Positions 1-15,710 of a DNA stretch of 64,000 bases are shown piece by piece. This stretch comes from Bacteroidaceae bacterium (lineage in GTDB: Bacteria > Bacteroidota > Bacteroidia > Bacteroidales > Bacteroidaceae), in the NCBI GenBank assembly GCA_017517925.1, contig JAFWXS010000047.1, forward strand, positions 2,864 to 66,863, in the 5' to 3' direction. The translations under genes and the position numbers were made by a program. The first letter of the stretch is position 1, and each line of letters begins with the position of its first letter. The notes under the pieces were generated by a model. It did no database searches and was not told where the DNA came from. It worked only from the letters and a program-made list of their open reading frames with translations.

Positions 1-807
1 TGGAGTTATATAGTTGTTATAGACAGCCAAAACAGACTCTGATGTAGCAAACTTCAATGTTTGGAATAGATGTTCTGAATTCTTAAATAGGACACCCTCT
101 ACCTCTAATGGGCAAGATGACATATTGGACAATATCCAATGTTCGTCGGTCATTTTGTGAAAGAACACTGATTGTTCAATTGGATAAACTTGGATACCCC
201 AGTATTCGGGGTAATATTTCTTTATGAACTCTGCAATGCGGGTTGAACTCTTCTTTTTCAATTTCCCTTTCTCATCAAGTTCTACTTCTTCTATCTTCTT
301 GATAGCAATAATACTATCATCCAATATAGCAACATTGATTTTACCATTGTCTGGGTTTGATTGTGAATGTGCCCAAACAAGATAAAGAACGCCTATTTCA
401 TATAAGAACTTTGACACCTTAATCTCACCCTCTGTGCTCAATGAACCTATCATTTTTTTGACTGTTCCTTTGTTGCCAAGAAGGAGATTGCCTACATATT
501 TCCTGAAATGTTTCCCTAAACTTTTCGCTTCATCAGGTATCTGCCCAATTTGCTCTTCCACCTTCTCAACGATAGAGTTGTGAGGAGGCTTGGCTGATAC
601 GATATGGTTGGTATCTGTCAGTTCGGGGATTTCAAGGGTATATACATACTTTGTTTCACCCTTGCACTTGCCAGCATAAAGTGCTGCTGTATCATAAACA
701 CTGCTGGCGTAGTGTCCTACACCAAACTTTGATTTCCCCTCGCCCTCTCCAAGATGGGCAAGGTCGAAGTGGTCAAACTTCTTGGTTGTTCCGTGATATA
801 CAATCAT
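1..807 (-). CDS. NADAR (YbiA/DUF1768-like) domain protein with an N-terminal HG[ST]-type ART-fold-like domain; the 3' end of the gene lies outside the window
   Basis: Missing from the ORF track because it has no stop inside the window. Hand translation of the minus strand from the ATG at 807-805 gives 269 uninterrupted codons (MIVYHGTTKKFDHFDLAHLGEGEGKSKFGVGHYASS...VFFHKMTDEHWILSNMSSCPLEVEGVLFKNSEHLFQTLKF...). The C-terminal part matches the NADAR signature seen in E. coli YbiA (F-Y..FSNF...P..VDG....SEHYFQAQKF). Confidence 0.75.
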   Translation of the reverse strand, partial: MIVYHGTTKKFDHFDLAHLGEGEGKSKFGVGHYASSVYDTAALYAGKCKGETKYVYTLEIPELTDTNHIVSAKPPHNSIVEKVEEQIGQIPDEAKSLGKHFRKYVGNLLLGNKGTVKKMIGSLSTEGEIKVSKFLYEIGVLYLVWAHSQSNPDNGKINVAILDDSIIAIKKIEEVELDEKGKLKKKSSTRIAEFIKKYYPEYWGIQVYPIEQSVFFHKMTDEHWILSNMSSCPLEVEGVLFKNSEHLFQTLKFATSESVLAVYNNYITP

Positions 808-811
808 ACTA

Positions 812-819
812 CAAAGATA
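812..819 (-). promoter_or_regulatory. Candidate Bacteroidetes -7 box (TATCTTTG = TAnnTTTG) 5 nt upstream of the ATG at 807, which implies a leaderless or near-leaderless mRNA
   Basis: The minus strand reads TTATCTTTGTAGTATG and matches TAnnTTTG exactly. Confidence 0.4.
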
Positions 820-960
820 ACAAAAAAGTGGGATAGTAATCTGCGAAATAATTATTATTTTTCCTCCACGATATGTGGTTATTTACCTAATTAAATATAT
901 AAGAAATGGTCACCACTTTGCAAAAGGTGACCAAAAGTGACCAAATTTGAGGTTTTGGCA

Positions 961-1006
961 AAAAGAAAAATCCTGCAAGTATTGAAAACCAATCACTTAC
1001 AGGATT
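961..1006 (-). terminator. Intrinsic terminator downstream of tRNA-Leu
   Basis: The minus strand reads AATCCTGTAAGT-(14 nt loop)-ACTTGCAGGATT followed by TTTTTCTTTT. The 12-bp stem has one mismatch. Confidence 0.6.
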
Positions 1007-1012
1007 TTGATG

Positions 1013-1094
1013 TACCCAGACCCGGGGTCGAACCGGGATGGGTTGCCCCACTGGTGTTTGAGACCAGCGCGTCTACCGATTCCGCCATCTGGGC
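1013..1094 (-). tRNA. tRNA-Leu (anticodon CAA)
   Basis: The reverse complement is GCCCAGATGGCGGAATCGGTAGACGCGCTGGTCTCAAACACCAGTGGGGCAACCCATCCCGGTTCGACCCCGGGTCTGGGTA. It has a 7-bp acceptor stem, the anticodon loop CTCAAAC, a long variable arm and a TTCGA T-loop. Confidence 0.93.
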
Positions 1095-6845: not shown

Positions 6846-8963
6846 ATGAAATTAAAACAACCCAAGGTGACCCTCTGTGCATTGGCACTTGCAGGTGCAA
6901 CCCTAAACATGACCTCTTGTATGGACAACAACAAAAACCCCTTCTACAGCGAGTATGACACACCGCATCAGACGGTGCCGTTCGATAAGATAAAACTGGA
7001 GCACTACGAGCCCGCCATCATGGAGGGCATCAAGCAGCATGCTGCCGAGGTGGAGGCTATCATCAATAACCCCGATGAACCGACATTTGAGAATACCATT
7101 GTAGCCTTGGAGTATGCAGGTGACCTGCTCGATCGCGTATTGACCGTGTTCTTCACACTCAACAGCGCCGAGACATCGGATGAAATGCAGGCTCTGGCAC
7201 AGAAACTCTCTCCCGTACTCACCGAGCACTCTAACAACATCTCGCTCAATGAGAAGCTTTTTGCACGTGTCAAGGCTGTGTATGAGTCTACCGACATGAG
7301 CACTCTCACCACCGAGCAGCAGCGACTGTTGCAGAAGAACTACGATAGCTTTGCCCGCAGTGGTGCTAACCTTAACGATGAGGACAAGGCCAAGTATCGT
7401 GAGCTGACCACCGAACTGAGCCAGGCGACTCTGGCTTTCGGGCAGAACACGTTGAAGGCGACCAATAATTATGCACTGAATGTTACCGACTCGACCCGCT
7501 TGAAGGGACTTCCCGAATCGGTGCTCGAGGCTGCCGCACAGACCGCCAAGGAGAAGGGGCATGAGGGATGGACCTTCACTCTGCATGCGCCCAGTTACAG
7601 CCCCTTGATGATGTACTGCGAAGACCGCGACCTGCGCCACGAGCTCTACATGGCCTACAACACACAGTGTGTGCAGAGCAATGACTACAACAATGAGGAG
7701 CTGGTGAAGAAAATCGTCAACCTCCGCCTCGCCATCGCCCAGCTCCTGGGTTACGAGAGCCATGCCGACTATGTGCTTGAGAACCGCATGGCCGAGAACG
7801 CTGCCAACGTGAACAACCTGCTCGACGAACTGCTCGTAGCTTACCTCCCTGCAGCCAAGGAAGAGGTGAAGGCCGTGCAGGAGATGGCAGCCCGCACTGA
7901 GGGCAAAGACTTCGAGCTGATGCCTTGGGACTGGTCGTTCTACTCAGAAAAACTTCGTGTAGAGAAATATAGCCTCAACGACGAGATGGTGCGCCCCTAT
8001 TTCAAACTCGAGAATGTAACCGACGGTGTGTTCGGCCTCGCCACACGCCTCTATGGCATCACCTTCGTGGAGAACAAGGACATCCCCGTATACCACCCCG
8101 ACGTGAAAGCCTATGATGTGCTTGACAAGGATGGCTCGTACCTCGCTGTCATCTACACCGACTTCTTCCCCCGTGCCGGCAAGCGCTCGGGCGCATGGAT
8201 GACCAGTTTCAAGGAGCAGTACGTGAAGGATGGCGTAGACAGCCGACCCCACGTGACCATCACGATGAACTTCACCAAGCCTACAGAGAGTAAGCCTGCA
8301 CTGCTCACACAAGATGAGGTGGAAACCTTCCTTCACGAGTTCGGCCACGCCCTGCATGGCATCTTCTCTGCAACAACTTATCCCTCAATGGGTGGTACCA
8401 ATGTATACCGCGACTTCGTGGAGCTGCCCTCGCAACTGATGGAGAACTTCTTGCCCAAGAAGGAGTTCCTCGCCACCTTCGCCTACCATTATGAGACGGG
8501 CGAGCTCATCCCCGACGAGCTCATCGAACGTATCGTACGTGCACAGAACTACAATGCCGCTTACCTCTGTATCCGTCAGTTGAGCCTCGGCATCCTCGAT
8601 ATGGCATGGTACTCACGCACCACACCGTTCGAGGGCGATGTGCTGGCCTACGAGCAGGAGGCATGGAAGTCAACCCAATTGTTGCCCTCAGCCCAAGGCA
8701 CAAATATGACCACTCATTTCGGGCATATCATGTCGGGCGGCTACTCGGCAGGCTACTATAGCTACAAGTGGTCCGAGATGCTTGATGCCGATGCCTTCTC
8801 GCTCTTCGAGGAAAAGGGCATCTACAATGAGGAGGTAGCCACATCGTTCCGTGAGAACATCCTCGAGAAGGGCTGTTCGGAGCATCCGAAGGAGCTCTAC
8901 CGCCGCTTCCGCGGGCAGGATGCCACCATCGATGCGTTGATGAAGCGGGACGGGATCAAGTAA
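6846..8963 (+). CDS. dcp: M3-family peptidyl-dipeptidase (Dcp-like), lipoprotein/secreted
   Basis: 705 aa. It has the HEFGHALHG zinc motif, an M3 layout and a signal peptide with Cys. Confidence 0.9.
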   Translation: MKLKQPKVTLCALALAGATLNMTSCMDNNKNPFYSEYDTPHQTVPFDKIKLEHYEPAIMEGIKQHAAEVEAIINNPDEPTFENTIVALEYAGDLLDRVLTVFFTLNSAETSDEMQALAQKLSPVLTEHSNNISLNEKLFARVKAVYESTDMSTLTTEQQRLLQKNYDSFARSGANLNDEDKAKYRELTTELSQATLAFGQNTLKATNNYALNVTDSTRLKGLPESVLEAAAQTAKEKGHEGWTFTLHAPSYSPLMMYCEDRDLRHELYMAYNTQCVQSNDYNNEELVKKIVNLRLAIAQLLGYESHADYVLENRMAENAANVNNLLDELLVAYLPAAKEEVKAVQEMAARTEGKDFELMPWDWSFYSEKLRVEKYSLNDEMVRPYFKLENVTDGVFGLATRLYGITFVENKDIPVYHPDVKAYDVLDKDGSYLAVIYTDFFPRAGKRSGAWMTSFKEQYVKDGVDSRPHVTITMNFTKPTESKPALLTQDEVETFLHEFGHALHGIFSATTYPSMGGTNVYRDFVELPSQLMENFLPKKEFLATFAYHYETGELIPDELIERIVRAQNYNAAYLCIRQLSLGILDMAWYSRTTPFEGDVLAYEQEAWKSTQLLPSAQGTNMTTHFGHIMSGGYSAGYYSYKWSEMLDADAFSLFEEKGIYNEEVATSFRENILEKGCSEHPKELYRRFRGQDATIDALMKRDGIK

Positions 8964-9501: not shown

Positions 9502-11087
9502 GACATCAACATATAAAGTTCAGCGTACTCACGCTTTCCGTACTCCTATTGGGCTGCTTCAGCTCATGCTTCGATTATGGTAGGCCTCAAGGGAGCGATA
9601 AACTGTCGGCTCTGCTGCATGTCATCGGCAACCAGTATGTAGATACGGTGGATATGGATGACCTCGTCGAGAAGACCATCCCCAAAGTATTGGCCGAACT
9701 CGACCCCCACTCGGTGTACATACCAGCCAAGGATGCCGAGGCTGCCGACCAGGATTTGCGTGGAAGCTTCAGCGGCATCGGCATACAGTTCATGATACAG
9801 GCCGATACCATCTATGTAAGTGATGTCATCCCTGGAGGTCCTGCCGAAAAGGTGGGCTTGATGGCCGGTGACCGTATCGTCACCATCGATGATTCACTTT
9901 ATGTGGGCAAGATTGTCAACAACGATGGAGCCATGAAACGCCTCAAGGGTCCCAAGGGAAGCGAGGTACGACTCGGCATCAAGCGCTATGGAGAGAAAGA
10001 CTTGCTCCAATACACTATTGTACGCGGTAACATTCCCGTCAAGAGTGTAGATGCCGCTTATATGATAGATGACCGCTGGTGCTACATCAAGATCAACAAG
10101 TTCGGTGAAACCACCTATCCCGAGATGCTCATTGCTCTCGCACAAGGCATGCAAAAAGGGTTGCAGGGCTGCATCATCGACCTGCGTGGTAATACGGGTG
10201 GTTACATGGGCGCTGCCATACAGATGGTCAATGAGTTCCTCCCCAAAGGCGATATGATTGTCTACACCGAAGGTGTCAATTCTCCGCGCTACGAGGAGCA
10301 TGCCAACGGAGGCGGCAGCTTCCAGAAGCTCCCTATTGTGGTACTCACCGACGAGACCTCAGCGTCGGCAAGCGAAATCTTTGCCGGTGCCATCCAGGAC
10401 AACGATCGCGGCACCATCATCGGTCGCCGCACCTTCGGCAAGGGCCTGGTACAGCAACCTATCGAGTTCTCCGACGGTTCATCCGTACGCCTCACCATCT
10501 CGCGCTACTACACCCCTTCGGGACGCTGCATACAGAAGCCCTACACCAACGGACACAACGAAGAGTATCAGCTCGACCTGCTCAATCGCTACGAGCATGG
10601 AGAGTTCTTCATCCAGGACAGCATCAAGCAAGACGAGAGCGTGGCATACAAGACCAAGAACGGACGCACTGTCTATGGCGGCGGTGGCATCATGCCCGAT
10701 ATCTTCGTACCTGAAGACACTACGGGCTACTCCTCATACTATGCCAACGTGGCCAAGATGGGACTCTTCACCCAGTTCCCCTTCCAGTATACCGACAAGA
10801 ACCGCCAACGTCTGTCGCAGTATACCACGATGGAGGAGTTGCTGCAATACCTCAAGACCCAGGACCTGCTGGAACAGCTCGTGCAACAAGCCACAAACAA
10901 AGGTGTCAAGCGTCGCAACAACCTCATCCGCCAGTCACGCACCTTGATGGAAGAGATACTCTACGGCAACGTCATATATAATATGCTCGGCATGGAGGAG
11001 TATGTAAAATATCTCAATCGAACCGACCCCGCTGTACTAAAAGCGGTAGAGGTGCTCGACCGGGGAGAATCGAAACCACAAAATTGA
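9498..11087 (+). CDS. S41-family C-terminal processing peptidase
   Basis: The track ORF 9372..11087 starts out of context inside the deaminase gene. The plausible start is the ATG at 9498 (MRHQHIKFSVLTLSVLLLGC), which makes an ATGA overlap with the deaminase stop. It has a PDZ region and the S41 motifs DLRGNTGG, SASASEIFAGAIQD and FGKGLVQ. Confidence 0.88.
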   Translation: MRHQHIKFSVLTLSVLLLGCFSSCFDYGRPQGSDKLSALLHVIGNQYVDTVDMDDLVEKTIPKVLAELDPHSVYIPAKDAEAADQDLRGSFSGIGIQFMIQADTIYVSDVIPGGPAEKVGLMAGDRIVTIDDSLYVGKIVNNDGAMKRLKGPKGSEVRLGIKRYGEKDLLQYTIVRGNIPVKSVDAAYMIDDRWCYIKINKFGETTYPEMLIALAQGMQKGLQGCIIDLRGNTGGYMGAAIQMVNEFLPKGDMIVYTEGVNSPRYEEHANGGGSFQKLPIVVLTDETSASASEIFAGAIQDNDRGTIIGRRTFGKGLVQQPIEFSDGSSVRLTISRYYTPSGRCIQKPYTNGHNEEYQLDLLNRYEHGEFFIQDSIKQDESVAYKTKNGRTVYGGGGIMPDIFVPEDTTGYSSYYANVAKMGLFTQFPFQYTDKNRQRLSQYTTMEELLQYLKTQDLLEQLVQQATNKGVKRRNNLIRQSRTLMEEILYGNVIYNMLGMEEYVKYLNRTDPAVLKAVEVLDRGESKPQN

Positions 11088-11137
11088 AATGAAGCGGTTT
11101 GAAACTCTTCATTCTTCACTTTTAACTCTTCACTTAC

Positions 11138-12091
11138 ATGAGCGTTATAGACTCTATCACCAACACTACACGCACGGCATTCTCCTTCGAGGTATTGCCG
11201 CCGCTCAAGGGTACGGGTATCAATACCCTGTTCCGCACCATCGACGAGCTGCGCGAGTTTGACCCACGCTATATCAACATCACCACACACCGCAGCGAAT
11301 ATGTATACCAAGAGTCGCCCGAAGGTGTCTTCCATAAGGTATCGCTCCGCCGCCGCCCCGGCACCGTGGCCGTAGCGGCAGCTATCAAGAACAAGTATGA
11401 TATTCCCGTGGTGCCTCATATCCTCTGCAGCGGTTTCACTCGCGAAGAGACCGAGTATGTACTGCTCGATCTGCAGTTTCTCGGCATTACCGACCTGTTG
11501 CTGCTTCGCGGTGACAAGGCCAAGCACGAGTCGGTGTTTACCCCTACGGCAGACGGCTACAGCCACGCCATAGAACTCCAAGGGCAGATCAACCGCTTTA
11601 ATGAGGGCTTCTTCTGTGACGGTTCGCCCATCAAGGAGCCGGGCCAACCTTTCTCCTATGGTGTGGCCTGCTACCCCGAGAAGCACGAGGAGTCGCCCAA
11701 CATGGAGATGGACCTCTACTGGCTGAAGGAAAAAGTGAAGGCCGGTGCCCAATATGCCGTCACACAGCTATTCTACGACAACGACAAGTACTTCCGCTTC
11801 GTGGAGCGTGCCCGTGCCGAGGGTATCACCATCCCCATCATTCCCGGTATCAAGCCCTTGAAGACCGCCCGCCAACTCAGCATCATCCCCAAGACCTTCA
11901 AGGTAGACTTGCCCCAAGCCCTGGCTACCGAGGTGCTCCGCTGCAAGAGCGACGAGGAGGTGCGCCAAGTGGGCATAGAATGGTGTACGGCCCAATGCCG
12001 CGAACTCATTGCACACGGCGTGCCCAGCATACACTTCTATGCCATGGCAGCCACCGACAGTGTAAAGCAGGTAGCCAAAGCAATCTATTAG
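11138..12091 (+). CDS. metF: 5,10-methylenetetrahydrofolate reductase
   Basis: 317 aa. It begins FSFEVLPPLKG and the overall pattern is MetF. Confidence 0.9.
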   Translation: MSVIDSITNTTRTAFSFEVLPPLKGTGINTLFRTIDELREFDPRYINITTHRSEYVYQESPEGVFHKVSLRRRPGTVAVAAAIKNKYDIPVVPHILCSGFTREETEYVLLDLQFLGITDLLLLRGDKAKHESVFTPTADGYSHAIELQGQINRFNEGFFCDGSPIKEPGQPFSYGVACYPEKHEESPNMEMDLYWLKEKVKAGAQYAVTQLFYDNDKYFRFVERARAEGITIPIIPGIKPLKTARQLSIIPKTFKVDLPQALATEVLRCKSDEEVRQVGIEWCTAQCRELIAHGVPSIHFYAMAATDSVKQVAKAIY

Positions 12092-13023: not shown

Positions 13024-14547
13024 ATGTCGGACAACAAAAGAATGAAAACGGCCCTTGTATCGGTATTCCACAAGGACGGATTGGATGAGATCATTACCAC
13101 GCTCCATAAGGAGGGCGTACAGTTGCTTTCTACAGGCGGTACTCAGGAGTTCATCGAGTCGCTGGGCGTTCCCTGCCAGCGTGTAGAGGACTTGACAGGC
13201 TATCCCTCAATCCTTGGCGGACGTGTGAAGACACTCCACCCCAAGGTGTTCGGTGGTATCCTCGGTCGTCGCGACAACGAAGGCGACCAGGTGCAGATGG
13301 TCAACTACGAGATTCCCGAAATCGACCTCGTGATCGTAGACCTCTACCCCTTCGAGGCTACCGTTGCATCGGGCGCTTCACATGAGGCTATCATCGAGAA
13401 GATTGATATAGGCGGTATCTCGCTCATCCGCGCAGCAGCCAAGAATCACAAGGATGTGGTTATCGTAGCCAGCAAGGACCAGTATGCAGCACTCGCAGAC
13501 ATCCTTCGCAACAAGGGTGCACAGACCACCCTTGAGGAGCGCGTATGGTTCGCCAAGGAGGCATTTGCCGTATCTTCACTCTACGACTCTGCCATCTTCA
13601 ACTACTTCGATGGTGACAATGCCTCTATGTTCCGCAAGGCGGTGAACCATCCCAAATCACTCCGTTATGGTGAGAACCCCCACCAGAAGGGTTACTTCTA
13701 TGGTGACTTCGAGGCTATGTTCGACCAGATTCACGGCAAGGAGATTTCATACAACAACCTGCTCGATATCAACGCTGCCGTAGACCTCATCGACGAGTTT
13801 GACGAGACCACCTTCGCTATCCTCAAGCACAACAACGCTTGTGGCCTCGCTTCACGCGAGACCTTGCTTGAGGCTTGGACCGACGCTCTCGCTGGCGACC
13901 CCGTATCGGCTTTCGGTGGTGTGCTCATCACCAACCGCGCTATCGACAAGGCTACTGCCGAGGAGATCAACAAGATCTTCTTCGAGGTAATCATCGCTCC
14001 CGACTACGACGTGAATGCACTTGAGATTCTTACCCAGAAGAAGAACCGCATCATCCTCGTTCGGAAGGAGCCCGAGATGCCCCGTCAGCAGTACCGCTCT
14101 GTACTCAACGGTGTGCTCGTACAGGACCGTGACCTCAAGACCGAGACTCCCGAGGACTGCAAGCCTGTAACCAACAAGGTGGCTACAGCCGAGGAGATTG
14201 AGGATATGCTCTTCGCCAACAAGATTGTGAAGAACAGCAAGAGCAACGCTATCGTATTGGCCAAGAACAAGCAGCTGCTCGCCAGCGGTGTAGGTCAGAC
14301 CTCACGCGTAGATGCACTGAAGCACGCTATCGAGAAGGCTCAGGGCTTCGGCTTCGACCTTCAGGGTGCAGTGATGGCCAGCGATGCCTTCTTCCCCTTC
14401 CCCGACTGCGTGGAGATTGCCCACGAGGCAGGTGTTACCGCTGTCATCCAGCCCGGTGGCTCTGTACGCGACGCTGAGTCTGTACAGTACTGCAACGACC
14501 ACGATGTGGCAATGGTAATCACTGGTTTCCGTCATTTCAAACATTAA
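13024..14547 (+). CDS. purH: Bifunctional AICAR formyltransferase / IMP cyclohydrolase
   Basis: 507 aa. It begins ALVSVFHKDGL and continues with LSTGGT and TLHPKVFGGIL. Confidence 0.95.
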   Translation: MSDNKRMKTALVSVFHKDGLDEIITTLHKEGVQLLSTGGTQEFIESLGVPCQRVEDLTGYPSILGGRVKTLHPKVFGGILGRRDNEGDQVQMVNYEIPEIDLVIVDLYPFEATVASGASHEAIIEKIDIGGISLIRAAAKNHKDVVIVASKDQYAALADILRNKGAQTTLEERVWFAKEAFAVSSLYDSAIFNYFDGDNASMFRKAVNHPKSLRYGENPHQKGYFYGDFEAMFDQIHGKEISYNNLLDINAAVDLIDEFDETTFAILKHNNACGLASRETLLEAWTDALAGDPVSAFGGVLITNRAIDKATAEEINKIFFEVIIAPDYDVNALEILTQKKNRIILVRKEPEMPRQQYRSVLNGVLVQDRDLKTETPEDCKPVTNKVATAEEIEDMLFANKIVKNSKSNAIVLAKNKQLLASGVGQTSRVDALKHAIEKAQGFGFDLQGAVMASDAFFPFPDCVEIAHEAGVTAVIQPGGSVRDAESVQYCNDHDVAMVITGFRHFKH

Positions 14548-14551
14548 TAAT

Positions 14552-14672
14552 CAGGAGTTCAGGAGTCAGGAGTATAGGAGTTCAGACGATACTTATGACT
14601 GATGTCTTCGTTTCAAACATTCATTATTCAGAACTATTGTCTGAACTCCTGAACTCCTGACTTCTGAACTCC
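14552..14672. repeat. Long word-repeat hairpin (CAGGAGT/TCAGGAGT heptamer-like units) between purH and mreB
   Basis: The left arm at 14552-14587 pairs with the right arm at 14639-14672 over about 34 bp, with a few mismatches and a loop of about 50 nt. Confidence 0.75.
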
Positions 14673-14687
14673 CCAAAAGACAAATAC

Positions 14688-15710
14688 ATGGGACTTTTCT
14701 CTTTCACACAAGAAATAGCAATGGACCTCGGCACGGCCAACACCATTATCCTGCACAATGGCAAGATTGTGGTGGATGAGCCCTCTGTCGTAGCCCTCGA
14801 CCGCCGCACAGAGAAAATGGTTGCTGTGGGCGGACGTGCAAAACTGATGCACGAGAAGACCAATGAGAATATCAAGACCATCCGTCCGTTGCGTGACGGC
14901 GTGATTGCCGACTTTAATGCTTGTGAGCAGATGATGCGCGGACTCATCAAGATGGTGAATACACGTGCCCGCCTGTTCACTCCTTCATTGCGCATGGTTA
15001 TCGGTGTGCCTTCGGGTAGTACTGAAGTGGAACTGCGTGCTGTACGCGACTCGGCCGAACATGCTGGAGGACGTGACATCTACCTCATCTATGAACCTAT
15101 GGCTGCAGCTGTGGGTATCGGTCTCGACGTAGAAGCCCCCGAAGGCAACATGGTGGTAGATATAGGTGGTGGTTCTACCGAGATTGCCGTTATCTCACTC
15201 GGTGGTATTGTAAAGAACAGCTCTATCCGTGTAGCGGGTGATGATTTCACTGCCGACATCCAGGAGTATATGGGACGTCAGCACAACTTGAGAGTCAGCG
15301 AACGTATGGCCGAGCGTATCAAGATACATGTAGGCTCTGCTTTGACCGACCTCGATGAGGATGCCCCTGAAGAATACATCGTGCATGGCCCGAACAAGAT
15401 TACCGCTCTGCCTATGGCTGTGTCTGTATGCTATCAGGAGATTGCGCACTGCCTGGATAAGTCAATTGCCAAGATTGAGAATGCTGTGCTCAACGCACTC
15501 GAAGAGACACCGCCTGAAATCTATGCCGACATCATCCATAACGGCATCTATCTCGCTGGTGGTGGTGCCCTGCTGCGTGGCTTGGCCAAGCGTTTGCAGG
15601 ACAAGATCAACATCCCCTTCCACGTGGCCGATGACCCCTTGCACTGCGTTGCTCGCGGTACAGGCATCGCGCTGAAGAATGTGGAGAAGTTCTCGTTCTT
15701 GATGCGATAA
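14688..15710 (+). CDS. mreB: Rod-shape-determining actin homolog
   Basis: 340 aa with the MreB motifs DLGTANT and VVDIGGGSTE. Confidence 0.95.
   Translation: MGLFSFTQEIAMDLGTANTIILHNGKIVVDEPSVVALDRRTEKMVAVGGRAKLMHEKTNENIKTIRPLRDGVIADFNACEQMMRGLIKMVNTRARLFTPSLRMVIGVPSGSTEVELRAVRDSAEHAGGRDIYLIYEPMAAAVGIGLDVEAPEGNMVVDIGGGSTEIAVISLGGIVKNSSIRVAGDDFTADIQEYMGRQHNLRVSERMAERIKIHVGSALTDLDEDAPEEYIVHGPNKITALPMAVSVCYQEIAHCLDKSIAKIENAVLNALEETPPEIYADIIHNGIYLAGGGALLRGLAKRLQDKINIPFHVADDPLHCVARGTGIALKNVEKFSFLMR

Follow-up and report, generated by a model that had tools for sequence, protein, structure and literature searches.

A single-chain ART-like/NADAR protein in a Bacteroidaceae genome as a candidate fused form of a two-gene conflict cassette

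Reversible ADP-ribosylation of DNA or RNA by pairs of ADP-ribosyltransferases (ARTs) and hydrolases is a recently recognized principle of growth control and anti-phage defense, known from DarT-DarG and DarT1-NADAR. Here, we describe a gene that joins an ART-fold domain and a NADAR domain in one 385-residue protein. It lies at the left edge of a 64,000-nucleotide stretch (the window) of the 2.36-Mb, 77% complete genome of a Bacteroidaceae bacterium (GenBank assembly GCA_017517925.1; contig JAFWXS010000047.1, here C61, positions 2864–66863). We give an even chance to the reading that the protein is an ADP-ribose writer and eraser in a single chain, that is, the fused form of a two-gene conflict cassette spread by horizontal transfer among Bacteroidales of gut and rumen. 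By analogy, it is probably a relative of ART/NADAR toxin-antitoxin or defense pairs such as DarT1-NADAR.

In the proven toxin-antitoxin pair DarT1-NADAR, ADP-ribosylation of guanine is undone by the NADAR (Schuller et al., 2023, PMC11543638). The known macromolecular substrates of NADARs are guanine or cytosine amine linkages in DNA or RNA (PMC11543638, PMC11833690, PMC12945103), and residues that matter in these enzymes include E88/K95 in the E. coli C7 NADAR and E125/W133 in the P. nicotianae NADAR (PMC11543638). ART-PolyVal domains, defined by a His in strand 1, a Tyr in strand 2, and an Asp in strand 5, serve phage and conjugative elements as effector domains and have been grouped with polymorphic-toxin ARTs and with a toxin-antitoxin class (Iyer et al., 2017, PMC5512222). 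PDC-M42, a catalogued candidate defense system embedded in defense loci, comprises a DUF3990-like ART, a DUF3791-like protein, and a NADAR (Payne et al., bioRxiv 10.1101/2024.01.29.577857). DS-32, which combines a phosphoribosyltransferase (PRTase) with a NADAR, has been validated as an anti-phage system of E. coli (DefensePredictor, bioRxiv 10.1101/2025.01.08.631726) and indicates that the N-ribosyl-forming partner of a NADAR can differ between validated defense systems. We found no mention of ART-PolyVal together with NADAR in the literature searched; an earlier mention in de Souza and Aravind (2012) is possible.

A previous reading of the window from its letters alone (below, the sequence-only reading) had placed here a strongly AT-rich open reading frame (ORF) that runs off the left edge and encodes ART-fold-like and NADAR domains in one protein. 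The ORF and both motif blocks quoted for it were found, and extending the contig beyond position 1, as had been recommended, recovered the complete 385-aa gene at C61:2513–3670, with its ATG at window positions 805–807 on the minus strand and 351 nt past the left edge; beyond the gene, 2.5 kb of contig remain. Its GC content is 39.6%, compared with a window mean of 50.5% (standard deviation 5.0), and 1.3% of equal-sized segments are equally low. The union of the two domains is upheld by Pfam, a structure model, and conservation. Within the window, the gene is laid out as follows:

1–807, minus strand: first 269 codons of the gene for the 385-aa ART-like/NADAR fusion (ORF list with open ends, ORF on its own contig).
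280–807, minus strand: ART-fold domain of the ART-PolyVal/DUF3990 kind, residues 1 to ~176 (Pfam, AlphaFold, Foldseek, profile, column counts, alignment).
193–279, minus strand: Lys-rich flexible linker, residues ~177–190 (predicted local distance difference test, pLDDT, 71), then a ‘YYPxYWGIxxYP’ extension, residues ~191–205.
1–192, minus strand: start of the NADAR domain, residues ~206–269 of ~206–366 (Pfam, YbiA alignment, Foldseek, conservation).

The same 384–385-aa architecture is present in at least 272 clusters at 90% identity, and the fusion is therefore no assembly artifact. The ratio of nonsynonymous to synonymous substitution rates (dN/dS, omega) of the gene against its orthologs is 0.16–0.22, and both the ART half and the NADAR half are under purifying selection: in comparisons with seven orthologs, omega is 0.11–0.22 for residues 1–190 and 0.20–0.32 for residues 215–385. 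A pseudogene or an assembly chimera is ruled out by conservation and dN/dS.

Several independent comparisons bear on the N-terminal half. The Pfam ART-PolyVal model (PF18760) matches residues 1–57 marginally, with 32.3 bits against a gathering score of 31.2, and aligns over only positions 7–58 of its 140 because of a helical insert in the protein; DUF3990 (PF13151) stays below threshold (20.8 vs 32.2 bits), and many stand-alone relatives carry a precomputed PF13151 hit. An AlphaFold model made from a 136-row alignment (pLDDT 94.5, predicted template-modeling score 0.75; the single-sequence model, with pLDDT 35, is unusable) has strands at residues 2–7, 32–35, 53–59, 142–146, 157–161, and 168–175, with the helical insert at 77–137. 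In Foldseek searches, this model matches the RES toxin 6gw6 (probability 0.98), PARP4 (0.96), diphtheria toxin, exotoxin A, cholix, and PARP3/10 in the PDB, and phage ‘PolyVal ADP-ribosyltransferase’ models in BFVD (E values of 1e-9 to 1e-10), while the family profile aligns YHG[ST]...GxGxY...A..Y with PARP12, PARP16, and the tankyrases. An exhaustive search with residues 1–214 returned 337 representatives, mostly stand-alone proteins of ~185–215 aa, some C-terminal domains of larger proteins, and some polyvalent proteins of 2,000–6,400 aa; when aligned directly with the ART domains of polyvalent proteins, the similarity spans the whole domain, last strands included. His5 (in strand 2–7) is kept in 93 of 94 members and Tyr33 (in strand 32–35) in 91 of 93, Tyr44 is also invariant or nearly so, and the family shows hardly any variation at Lys27, Asn67, Arg102, Lys103, Trp145, and Asn158. 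On the strength of the model and the alignments, the N-terminal half is best described as an ART fold, a member or sister of ART-PolyVal, in which His5, Tyr33, and Tyr44 are the predicted NAD-binding residues.

In a separate observation, a genome of the same family as the source genome (G124, contig C17, positions 625868–626326) encodes an ART-PolyVal-like domain in a 3,989-codon open frame, and the length of this frame together with its domain marks it as a polyvalent-type giant protein.

The C-terminal half is recognized more directly. Pfam NADAR (PF08719) covers residues 215–363 with 66.2 bits against a cut-off of 35.1 (model positions 1–160 of 163), E. coli YbiA (2b3w) is matched by sequence with an E value of 1.9e-10, and Foldseek with the model retrieves YbiA 2b3w (E 7.7e-7, template-modeling score on the target 0.70) and the P. 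nicotianae NADAR-ADP-ribose complex 8bau (E 1.2e-5). The catalytic motif S-E245-H-L-F-Q-T-L-K252-F is encoded within the window, and I-V-E323 and W339-G beyond its edge. Across the family, Glu245 is found in 98 of 106 sequences, Lys252 in 71 of 77, Glu323 in 77 of 77, and Trp339 in 76 of 77; the four residues were equated with the published NADAR residues by motif position and also align to YbiA. The Glu in I-V-E is of the YbiA type, as opposed to the Asp type of DarT1 partners, and the ‘YYPxYWGIxxYP’ N-terminal extension is kept in the fused proteins and also in NADAR partners that stand alone. Two equivalog cut-offs are missed, those of TIGR02464 (riboflavin-intermediate N-glycosidase; 62.1 vs 73.7 bits) and NF053876 (DS-32 NADAR; 99.1 vs 240 bits). 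As judged from sequence and the structure model, this half is a bona fide and complete YbiA-type NADAR with the catalytic Glu/Lys/Glu, for which hydrolase activity is predicted. The domain assignments of the sequence-only reading are thus supported on both sides: its N-terminal ART-fold families (DUF3990, ART-PolyVal) by profile, sequence, and structure, with the recommended Foldseek comparison yielding ART folds in the PDB and BFVD and no non-ART assignment, and its C-terminal NADAR/YbiA signature by the 66.2-bit score and the match to 2b3w, with the NADAR catalytic residues that it had wanted located in the full-length protein (Glu245, Lys252, Glu323, Trp339) all in place.

A scan of one genome per species shows how the two halves occur elsewhere. 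At least 521 stretches encode a relative, almost all of them in rumen and gut Bacteroidales (Prevotella, Xylanibacter ruminicola, Alistipes, Muribaculaceae, Bacteroidaceae, Rikenellaceae). Among the best 80 of these at least 521, to which the locus counts below refer, ~60 have the halves as neighboring genes, ART-like then NADAR, often with 1–4-nt overlaps; ~8 are fused, and a few have one half only. On unrelated contigs, a stand-alone NADAR gene is found 1–4 nt after a stand-alone gene for the N-domain. In a tree of the N-domain, well-supported branches carry at least seven changes between fused and split forms (maybe five or six, two rows being mislabeled as split). The clade that includes the present gene has six fused members and one split member and sits inside a 30-member clade whose other 23 members are all split, and since it is nested among split members, the fusion here is derived. 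Tree and locus counts together make the fusion a derived minority form of a two-gene operon, with fusion or fission having taken place several times.

Two further arrangements of the domains were observed. An 830-aa protein (P0166) has helix-turn-helix, NADAR-like, HAD phosphatase, and ART-PolyVal-like domains, that is, both domains joined in reverse order; its NADAR part matches the fusion protein by BLASTP (E 7e-9) and has no Pfam NADAR hit at E up to 0.001. A 758-kb metagenome scaffold (L005) carries two paralogous fused copies, at 10001–11158 and 14546–15709, that are 3.4 kb apart and 91% and 88% identical in DNA to the present gene, with a leucine-rich-repeat (LRR) gene and small ORFs between them and intact hsdR and GmrSD genes adjoining.

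The neighbors of the module, counted within 5 kb in the best 80 loci with separate seeds for each family, bring in a different explanation, in which the two domains are consecutive or cooperating enzymes acting on small ADP-ribose or ribosyl compounds, either for salvage or to destroy NAD-derived signals or toxic nucleotides. The ART-like domain would bind or cleave NAD+ or ADP-ribose derivatives, NADAR would cut an N-glycosidic ribosyl bond, and the neighbors would process the products. A divergent PfkB-family kinase (~311 aa) is present in 18 of the 80 loci, in 13 of them within 151 nt, an ADP-ribosylglycohydrolase (ARH) in 11, a microbial PARG-type macrodomain in 9, a nucleoside-2-deoxyribosyltransferase-like protein (Nuc_deoxyri_tr2) in 7, and a metallophosphoesterase in 6; an AAA ATPase is found in 11, and RtcB and HD proteins are occasional neighbors that also suit such a pathway. 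The kinase can even stand in for either partner, with PfkB-NADAR pairs in L062, L069, L077, and L089 and an ART-like-PfkB pair in L044. YbiA-type NADARs are, moreover, known small-molecule N-glycosidases (PMC9503650), and the ART-like domain has Asn158 where a catalytic acid is usual. Against this stand the closest relatives of the N-domain, which are polyvalent-protein effector domains, a very patchy distribution with signs of horizontal spread that would be unusual for a metabolic pathway, and the behavior of the fused clade, which travels alone as a 1.3-kb cassette: none of the PfkB, ARH, PARG-type, Nuc_deoxyri_tr2, AAA ATPase, or metallophosphoesterase partners is found beside it. We regard the small-molecule explanation as unlikely, if still a serious contender.

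The kinase was also seen in other settings. It lies 11–33 nt from the module in many split loci (L053, L087, L036, L091, and others), and in Prevotella it also adjoins 770–790-aa ADP-ribosylglycohydrolase proteins, PARG-type macrodomains, and nucleoside-deoxyribosyltransferase-like genes. The PfkB, ARH, PARG, and deoxyribosyltransferase-like genes look like a wider ADP-ribose gene set.

The fused gene shows cassette-like mobility and lies next to restriction genes. In the fused-gene genomes, homology starts 19–30 nt before the ATG and stops 70–600 nt after the stop codon, and the flanks differ. The features on the upstream side of the gene in the window are:

812–819, minus strand: TATCTTTG, which fits the consensus of the Bacteroidetes −7 promoter element, 5–12 nt before the ATG (sequence scan, alignment).
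840–859, minus strand: upstream copy of an ~20-nt repeat (AATAATAATTATTATTYAGA, 3 mismatches; comparison with L013, L015, and L006).
960–1007, minus strand: hairpin and T-run directly after the tRNA-Leu 3′ end (read from sequence).
1012–1094, minus strand: tRNA-Leu(CAA) (ARAGORN), which separates the conserved side, with pyrH, from the variable side, with the fusion gene.

In three other loci, the fused gene lies between direct repeats of 20–36 nt (AATAATAATTATTATTYAGA...), at 7929–7964 and 9210–9245 in L013, 7950–7969 and 9211–9230 in L015, and 1874–1889 and 3140–3155 in L006, and exact copies of the repeat in the fetched loci occur only beside the fused gene. Here, the copy at 840–859 is the sole match with three or fewer mismatches in the 64-kb window (0.01 expected), and the downstream copy, at about C61:2433–2458 and hence outside the window, abuts the hsdR stop codon. 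Where the downstream flank survives, it consists of the 3′ end of a type I restriction gene, hsdR; this hsdR is complete and adjoins GmrSD in L005, is truncated where the contig stops in L013, and is reduced to a 41-residue remnant in L006–L008. The remnant in the present genome (C61:1911–2444, plus strand, about 420–950 nt to the left of window position 1) encodes 161–177 residues, corresponds to the last ~177 residues of the hsdR product, and is 95–97% identical to the hsdR beside the fused gene in L005 and L013; there is no other piece of hsdR in the assembly. The repeats suggest that a ~1.26-kb cassette inserts or recombines at the hsdR 3′ end, and the remnant indicates, by sequence comparison, that the restriction system beside the cassette was deleted in the lineage of the source genome.

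The upstream flank is tRNA-Leu here and in L015 and L016, guaA in L013, and kduI in L005. The tRNA is on the same minus strand as the fusion gene, which therefore follows the tRNA 3′ end, and the hairpin and T-run between them look like the tRNA’s own terminator, in which case the fusion gene would be a separate transcription unit. The Bacteroidetes −7 consensus is TAnnTTTG, and in an upstream alignment of nine fused-clade loci the motif is found with small variations (TAGCTTTG, TATATTTG, TAACTTTG) in eight; at this spacing, the mRNA would be leaderless or nearly so. Taken by its sequence edges, the cassette measures ~1.3 kb and includes, besides the fused gene, a predicted promoter and terminator for it. 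Of the genomes from the same genus, four share the pyrH-tRNA-Leu segment, and in the two with an annotated flank past the tRNA (G203 and G204), a BspA-type LRR gene and/or HU-HIG and VapE-like genes replace the fusion gene. Homology with the nearest same-genus genome (G203) ends ~86 nt past the tRNA-Leu 3′ end. A GGTCACC/GGTGACC repeat cluster at window positions 908–942, ~100–135 nt upstream of the fusion gene, marks this break in synteny, as the G203 homology ends inside it (about 926–935). The proposal of the sequence-only reading that tRNA-Leu is an island insertion point holds in part: the gene does abut the 3′ side of the tRNA, at a variable spot, and tRNA-Leu recurs in L015 and L016, but no integrase is present in the 2.5 kb between the fusion gene and the contig end, and no tRNA-derived attachment (att) repeat in C61:1–4200.

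The wider distribution is patchy. Both halves are present in 5 of 201 sampled genomes of the same family, and none of nine same-genus genomes has a match; both sets are samples with several incomplete genomes. Copies with 84–89% identity occur in metagenome-assembled genomes (MAGs) labeled Bacteroidaceae, Alistipes, Rikenellaceae, and even Clostridia, labels that may include binning errors. The full module was found once in 2.9 million viral contigs (IMG/VR) and not at all in 50,697 phage records (INPHARED) or 72,556 plasmids (PLSDB). The module is thus host-side rather than phage-borne, and carriage by a phage or plasmid was rejected given its near-absence from these three collections.

These counts bear on the idea that the protein is an effector used by a mobile element against its host or against rival elements, the ART reprogramming a host target, as thought for T4 Alt and polyvalent ARTs, and the NADAR countering DarT1-type defenses. 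The closest relatives of the N-domain in both sequence and structure are indeed in polyvalent proteins of giant phages and conjugative elements, phage NADARs do neutralize DarT1 (PMC11825919), and the cassette-like mobility would fit. However, viral contigs, cultured phage genomes, and plasmids almost never carry the module, and no packaging, conjugation, or integrase genes lie beside the fused gene here, in L005, or in L013–L016. We consider such an effector very unlikely.

Under the preferred reading, the PARP-like ART domain would bind NAD+ through His5, Tyr33, and Tyr44 and put ADP-ribose on an N-linked acceptor, most likely the exocyclic amine of a nucleic-acid base, an acceptor proposed because this is the sole kind of macromolecular linkage that NADARs are known to cleave. 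The YbiA-type NADAR (Glu245, Lys252, Glu323) would hydrolyze the same linkage, so that in a resting cell the modification would be undone in cis, and damage or net NAD+ consumption would require that the eraser be outrun or blocked, as might happen in phage infection. The whole would then act as a fused toxin-antitoxin or abortive-infection device among restriction genes. In a stronger version, which we see as possible but somewhat doubtful, this is an undescribed Bacteroidales immune or conflict family in which the H-Y-N domain is an active N-acceptor ADP-ribosyltransferase (toward nucleic acid or another target) that is held by the attached eraser and is either released by an invader or part of an NAD+-burning futile cycle.

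Several points weigh against the preferred reading. Active H-Y-[ED] ARTs carry a catalytic Glu or Asp at the head of strand 5, and of the H-Y-E residues that the sequence-only reading had singled out for checking, the His and the Tyr are there, but the head of strand 5 (157–161, I-N-V-A-I) has Asn158, an Asn in 92 of 97 members. Because Asn158 replaces the canonical acidic residue, transferase activity of the N-domain is not assured. The nearest acidic residues (Glu59, Asp163/164, Glu173) are only moderately conserved, and Asp163/Asp164, as placed by the model strands, come after strand 157–161, the family having D 55, N 31, and K 8 at position 163. The domain might therefore bind NAD+ or ADP-ribose without transfer or use other chemistry. 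Some 30 of the 80 loci hold sugar- or ADP-ribose-processing enzymes beside the cassette, neighbors that suit a pathway as well as a conflict system; the link of the fused clade to defense islands amounts to one shared hsdR junction, without independent events; and hits to PADLOC and NCBIfam defense models are all below membership level. Finally, a covalent 1:1 fusion of toxin and antitoxin has no obvious route of activation. A conceptual model for switching on a fused writer-eraser is CapRel(SJ46), which holds a toxin-like enzymatic domain and a neutralizing domain in one chain and whose antitoxin domain acts by occlusion and sensing; its folds and chemistry are unrelated, and neutralization here would be by catalytic reversal.

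The Asn at the catalytic position also fits an explanation by protection only, in which NADAR erases the marks of foreign ART toxins and the ART-like domain is a non-transferring NAD/ADP-ribose-binding or targeting module, the whole being an acquired immunity gene. The toxins would come from contact-dependent effectors of competing Bacteroidales or from injected phage polyvalent proteins. Both in vitro and in vivo, NADARs and PARGs protect from ART toxins of exogenous origin (PMC11833690, PMC11125620). Given that ART-PolyVal domains are phage and conjugative effector domains (PMC5512222), a copy that acts as a decoy or binder can be envisaged, and other eraser families lie near many loci. Yet the N-domain, including His5, Tyr33, and Tyr44, is more conserved than the NADAR half (omega 0.11–0.22 vs 0.20–0.32), which speaks for an enzyme over a decoy; the strict order, in which the ART-like gene comes first and its stop codon overlaps the start codon of the NADAR gene, is a toxin-antitoxin pattern; and stand-alone NADARs would suffice for protection. 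This explanation strikes us as quite unlikely.

If the stronger version of the preferred reading is true, the protein represents a new way to build a toxin-antitoxin system, from two opposing enzymes in one protein. The gene points to a second, unrelated ART lineage joined with NADAR, namely the lineage of the injected polyvalent effectors of phages and conjugative elements. The ART-PolyVal-like/NADAR pairing is found in several hundred species-level genomes of the Bacteroidales, the dominant order of gut and rumen, whose defense systems are poorly charted. As one gene of 385 residues, it is a compact test object for the targets of ART-PolyVal domains, for transfer with an Asn, and for the regulation of opposing activities. 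Should the N-domain be inactive or the function metabolic, the analysis would still annotate many proteins now called ‘hypothetical’ or ‘ribA/ribD-fused’.

Some other features near the gene should be recorded. Between tRNA-Leu and pyrH, at window positions ~1236–1343, lies a ~100-nt element with inverted ends (GTCATCCTGAGCGAAGCGAAGGATC ... GATCCTTCACTACGTTCAGGATGAC), which we take for a dispersed repeat resembling repetitive extragenic palindromes (REP) or miniature inverted-repeat transposable elements (MITE) because dozens of partial copies occur on other contigs of this genome and in same-genus genomes. On the far side of the fusion gene, C61:2–709 (plus strand) is a 235-aa ORF truncated at the beginning of the contig, without hits in Pfam or NCBIfam; it shares 58% identity with an ORF that lies ~6 kb from the split module of L018 (a Rikenellaceae MAG). 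C61:858–1889 (plus strand) is a BspA-type leucine-rich-repeat gene (Pfam LRR_5). LRR_5 genes lie within 8 kb of the module in 21 module-holding loci (23 fetched loci in all), among them L005, L006–L008, L013, L030, L073, L081, L087, and L104, and are immediate neighbors in eight; in G203, one lies beside tRNA-Leu without an ART-NADAR gene. This recurrence may be a coincidence in LRR-rich genomes or may reflect a shared variable hotspot.

How, then, does the protein compare with the described systems? Like PDC-M42, it links an ART-like protein with a NADAR, but only PDC-M42C is matched (E 1.3e-4, 20 bits), PDC-M42A and PDC-M42B are not, and there is no middle component; the N-domain also matches PDC-M13B with an E value of 0.002. 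As in DS-32, a NADAR is paired with an enzyme that forms N-ribosyl bonds, and the DS-32 NADAR model is the best NCBIfam hit of the fusion protein, although at 99 bits it falls far below the 240-bit cut-off, and the DS-32 partner is a phosphoribosyltransferase and not an ART. With ART-PolyVal (the Tox-ART-HYD2 clade), the N-domain shares the blocks hYHGS..F..FD, GxGxY, A..Y, YVYTVEIP..N, G..FRK, and N-x-[AV]-[IV]-[LF]-[DN]; in contrast to the ART-PolyVal domains of polyvalent proteins, which are part of injected proteins of two to six thousand residues, it is a unit of ~190 residues, stand-alone or linked to NADAR, and encoded on bacterial chromosomes. Membership in the DarT1-NADAR family fails, as Pfam yields no DarT family at E values up to 1. 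Unlike DarT1, the ART here belongs to the ART-PolyVal/DUF3990 group, has a helical insert of ~75 residues, and has an Asn where DarT1 has its essential Glu152; unlike the DarT1 partners, with their Asp171-type NADAR, its NADAR is of the YbiA type (I-V-E323), and the two activities would reside in one polypeptide, in Bacteroidales hosts. What the system has in common with DarT1-NADAR is the pairing of a NADAR hydrolase with an ART from the H-Y-x clade, an ART-first order that its split relatives keep in a compact operon, and a patchy, accessory distribution.

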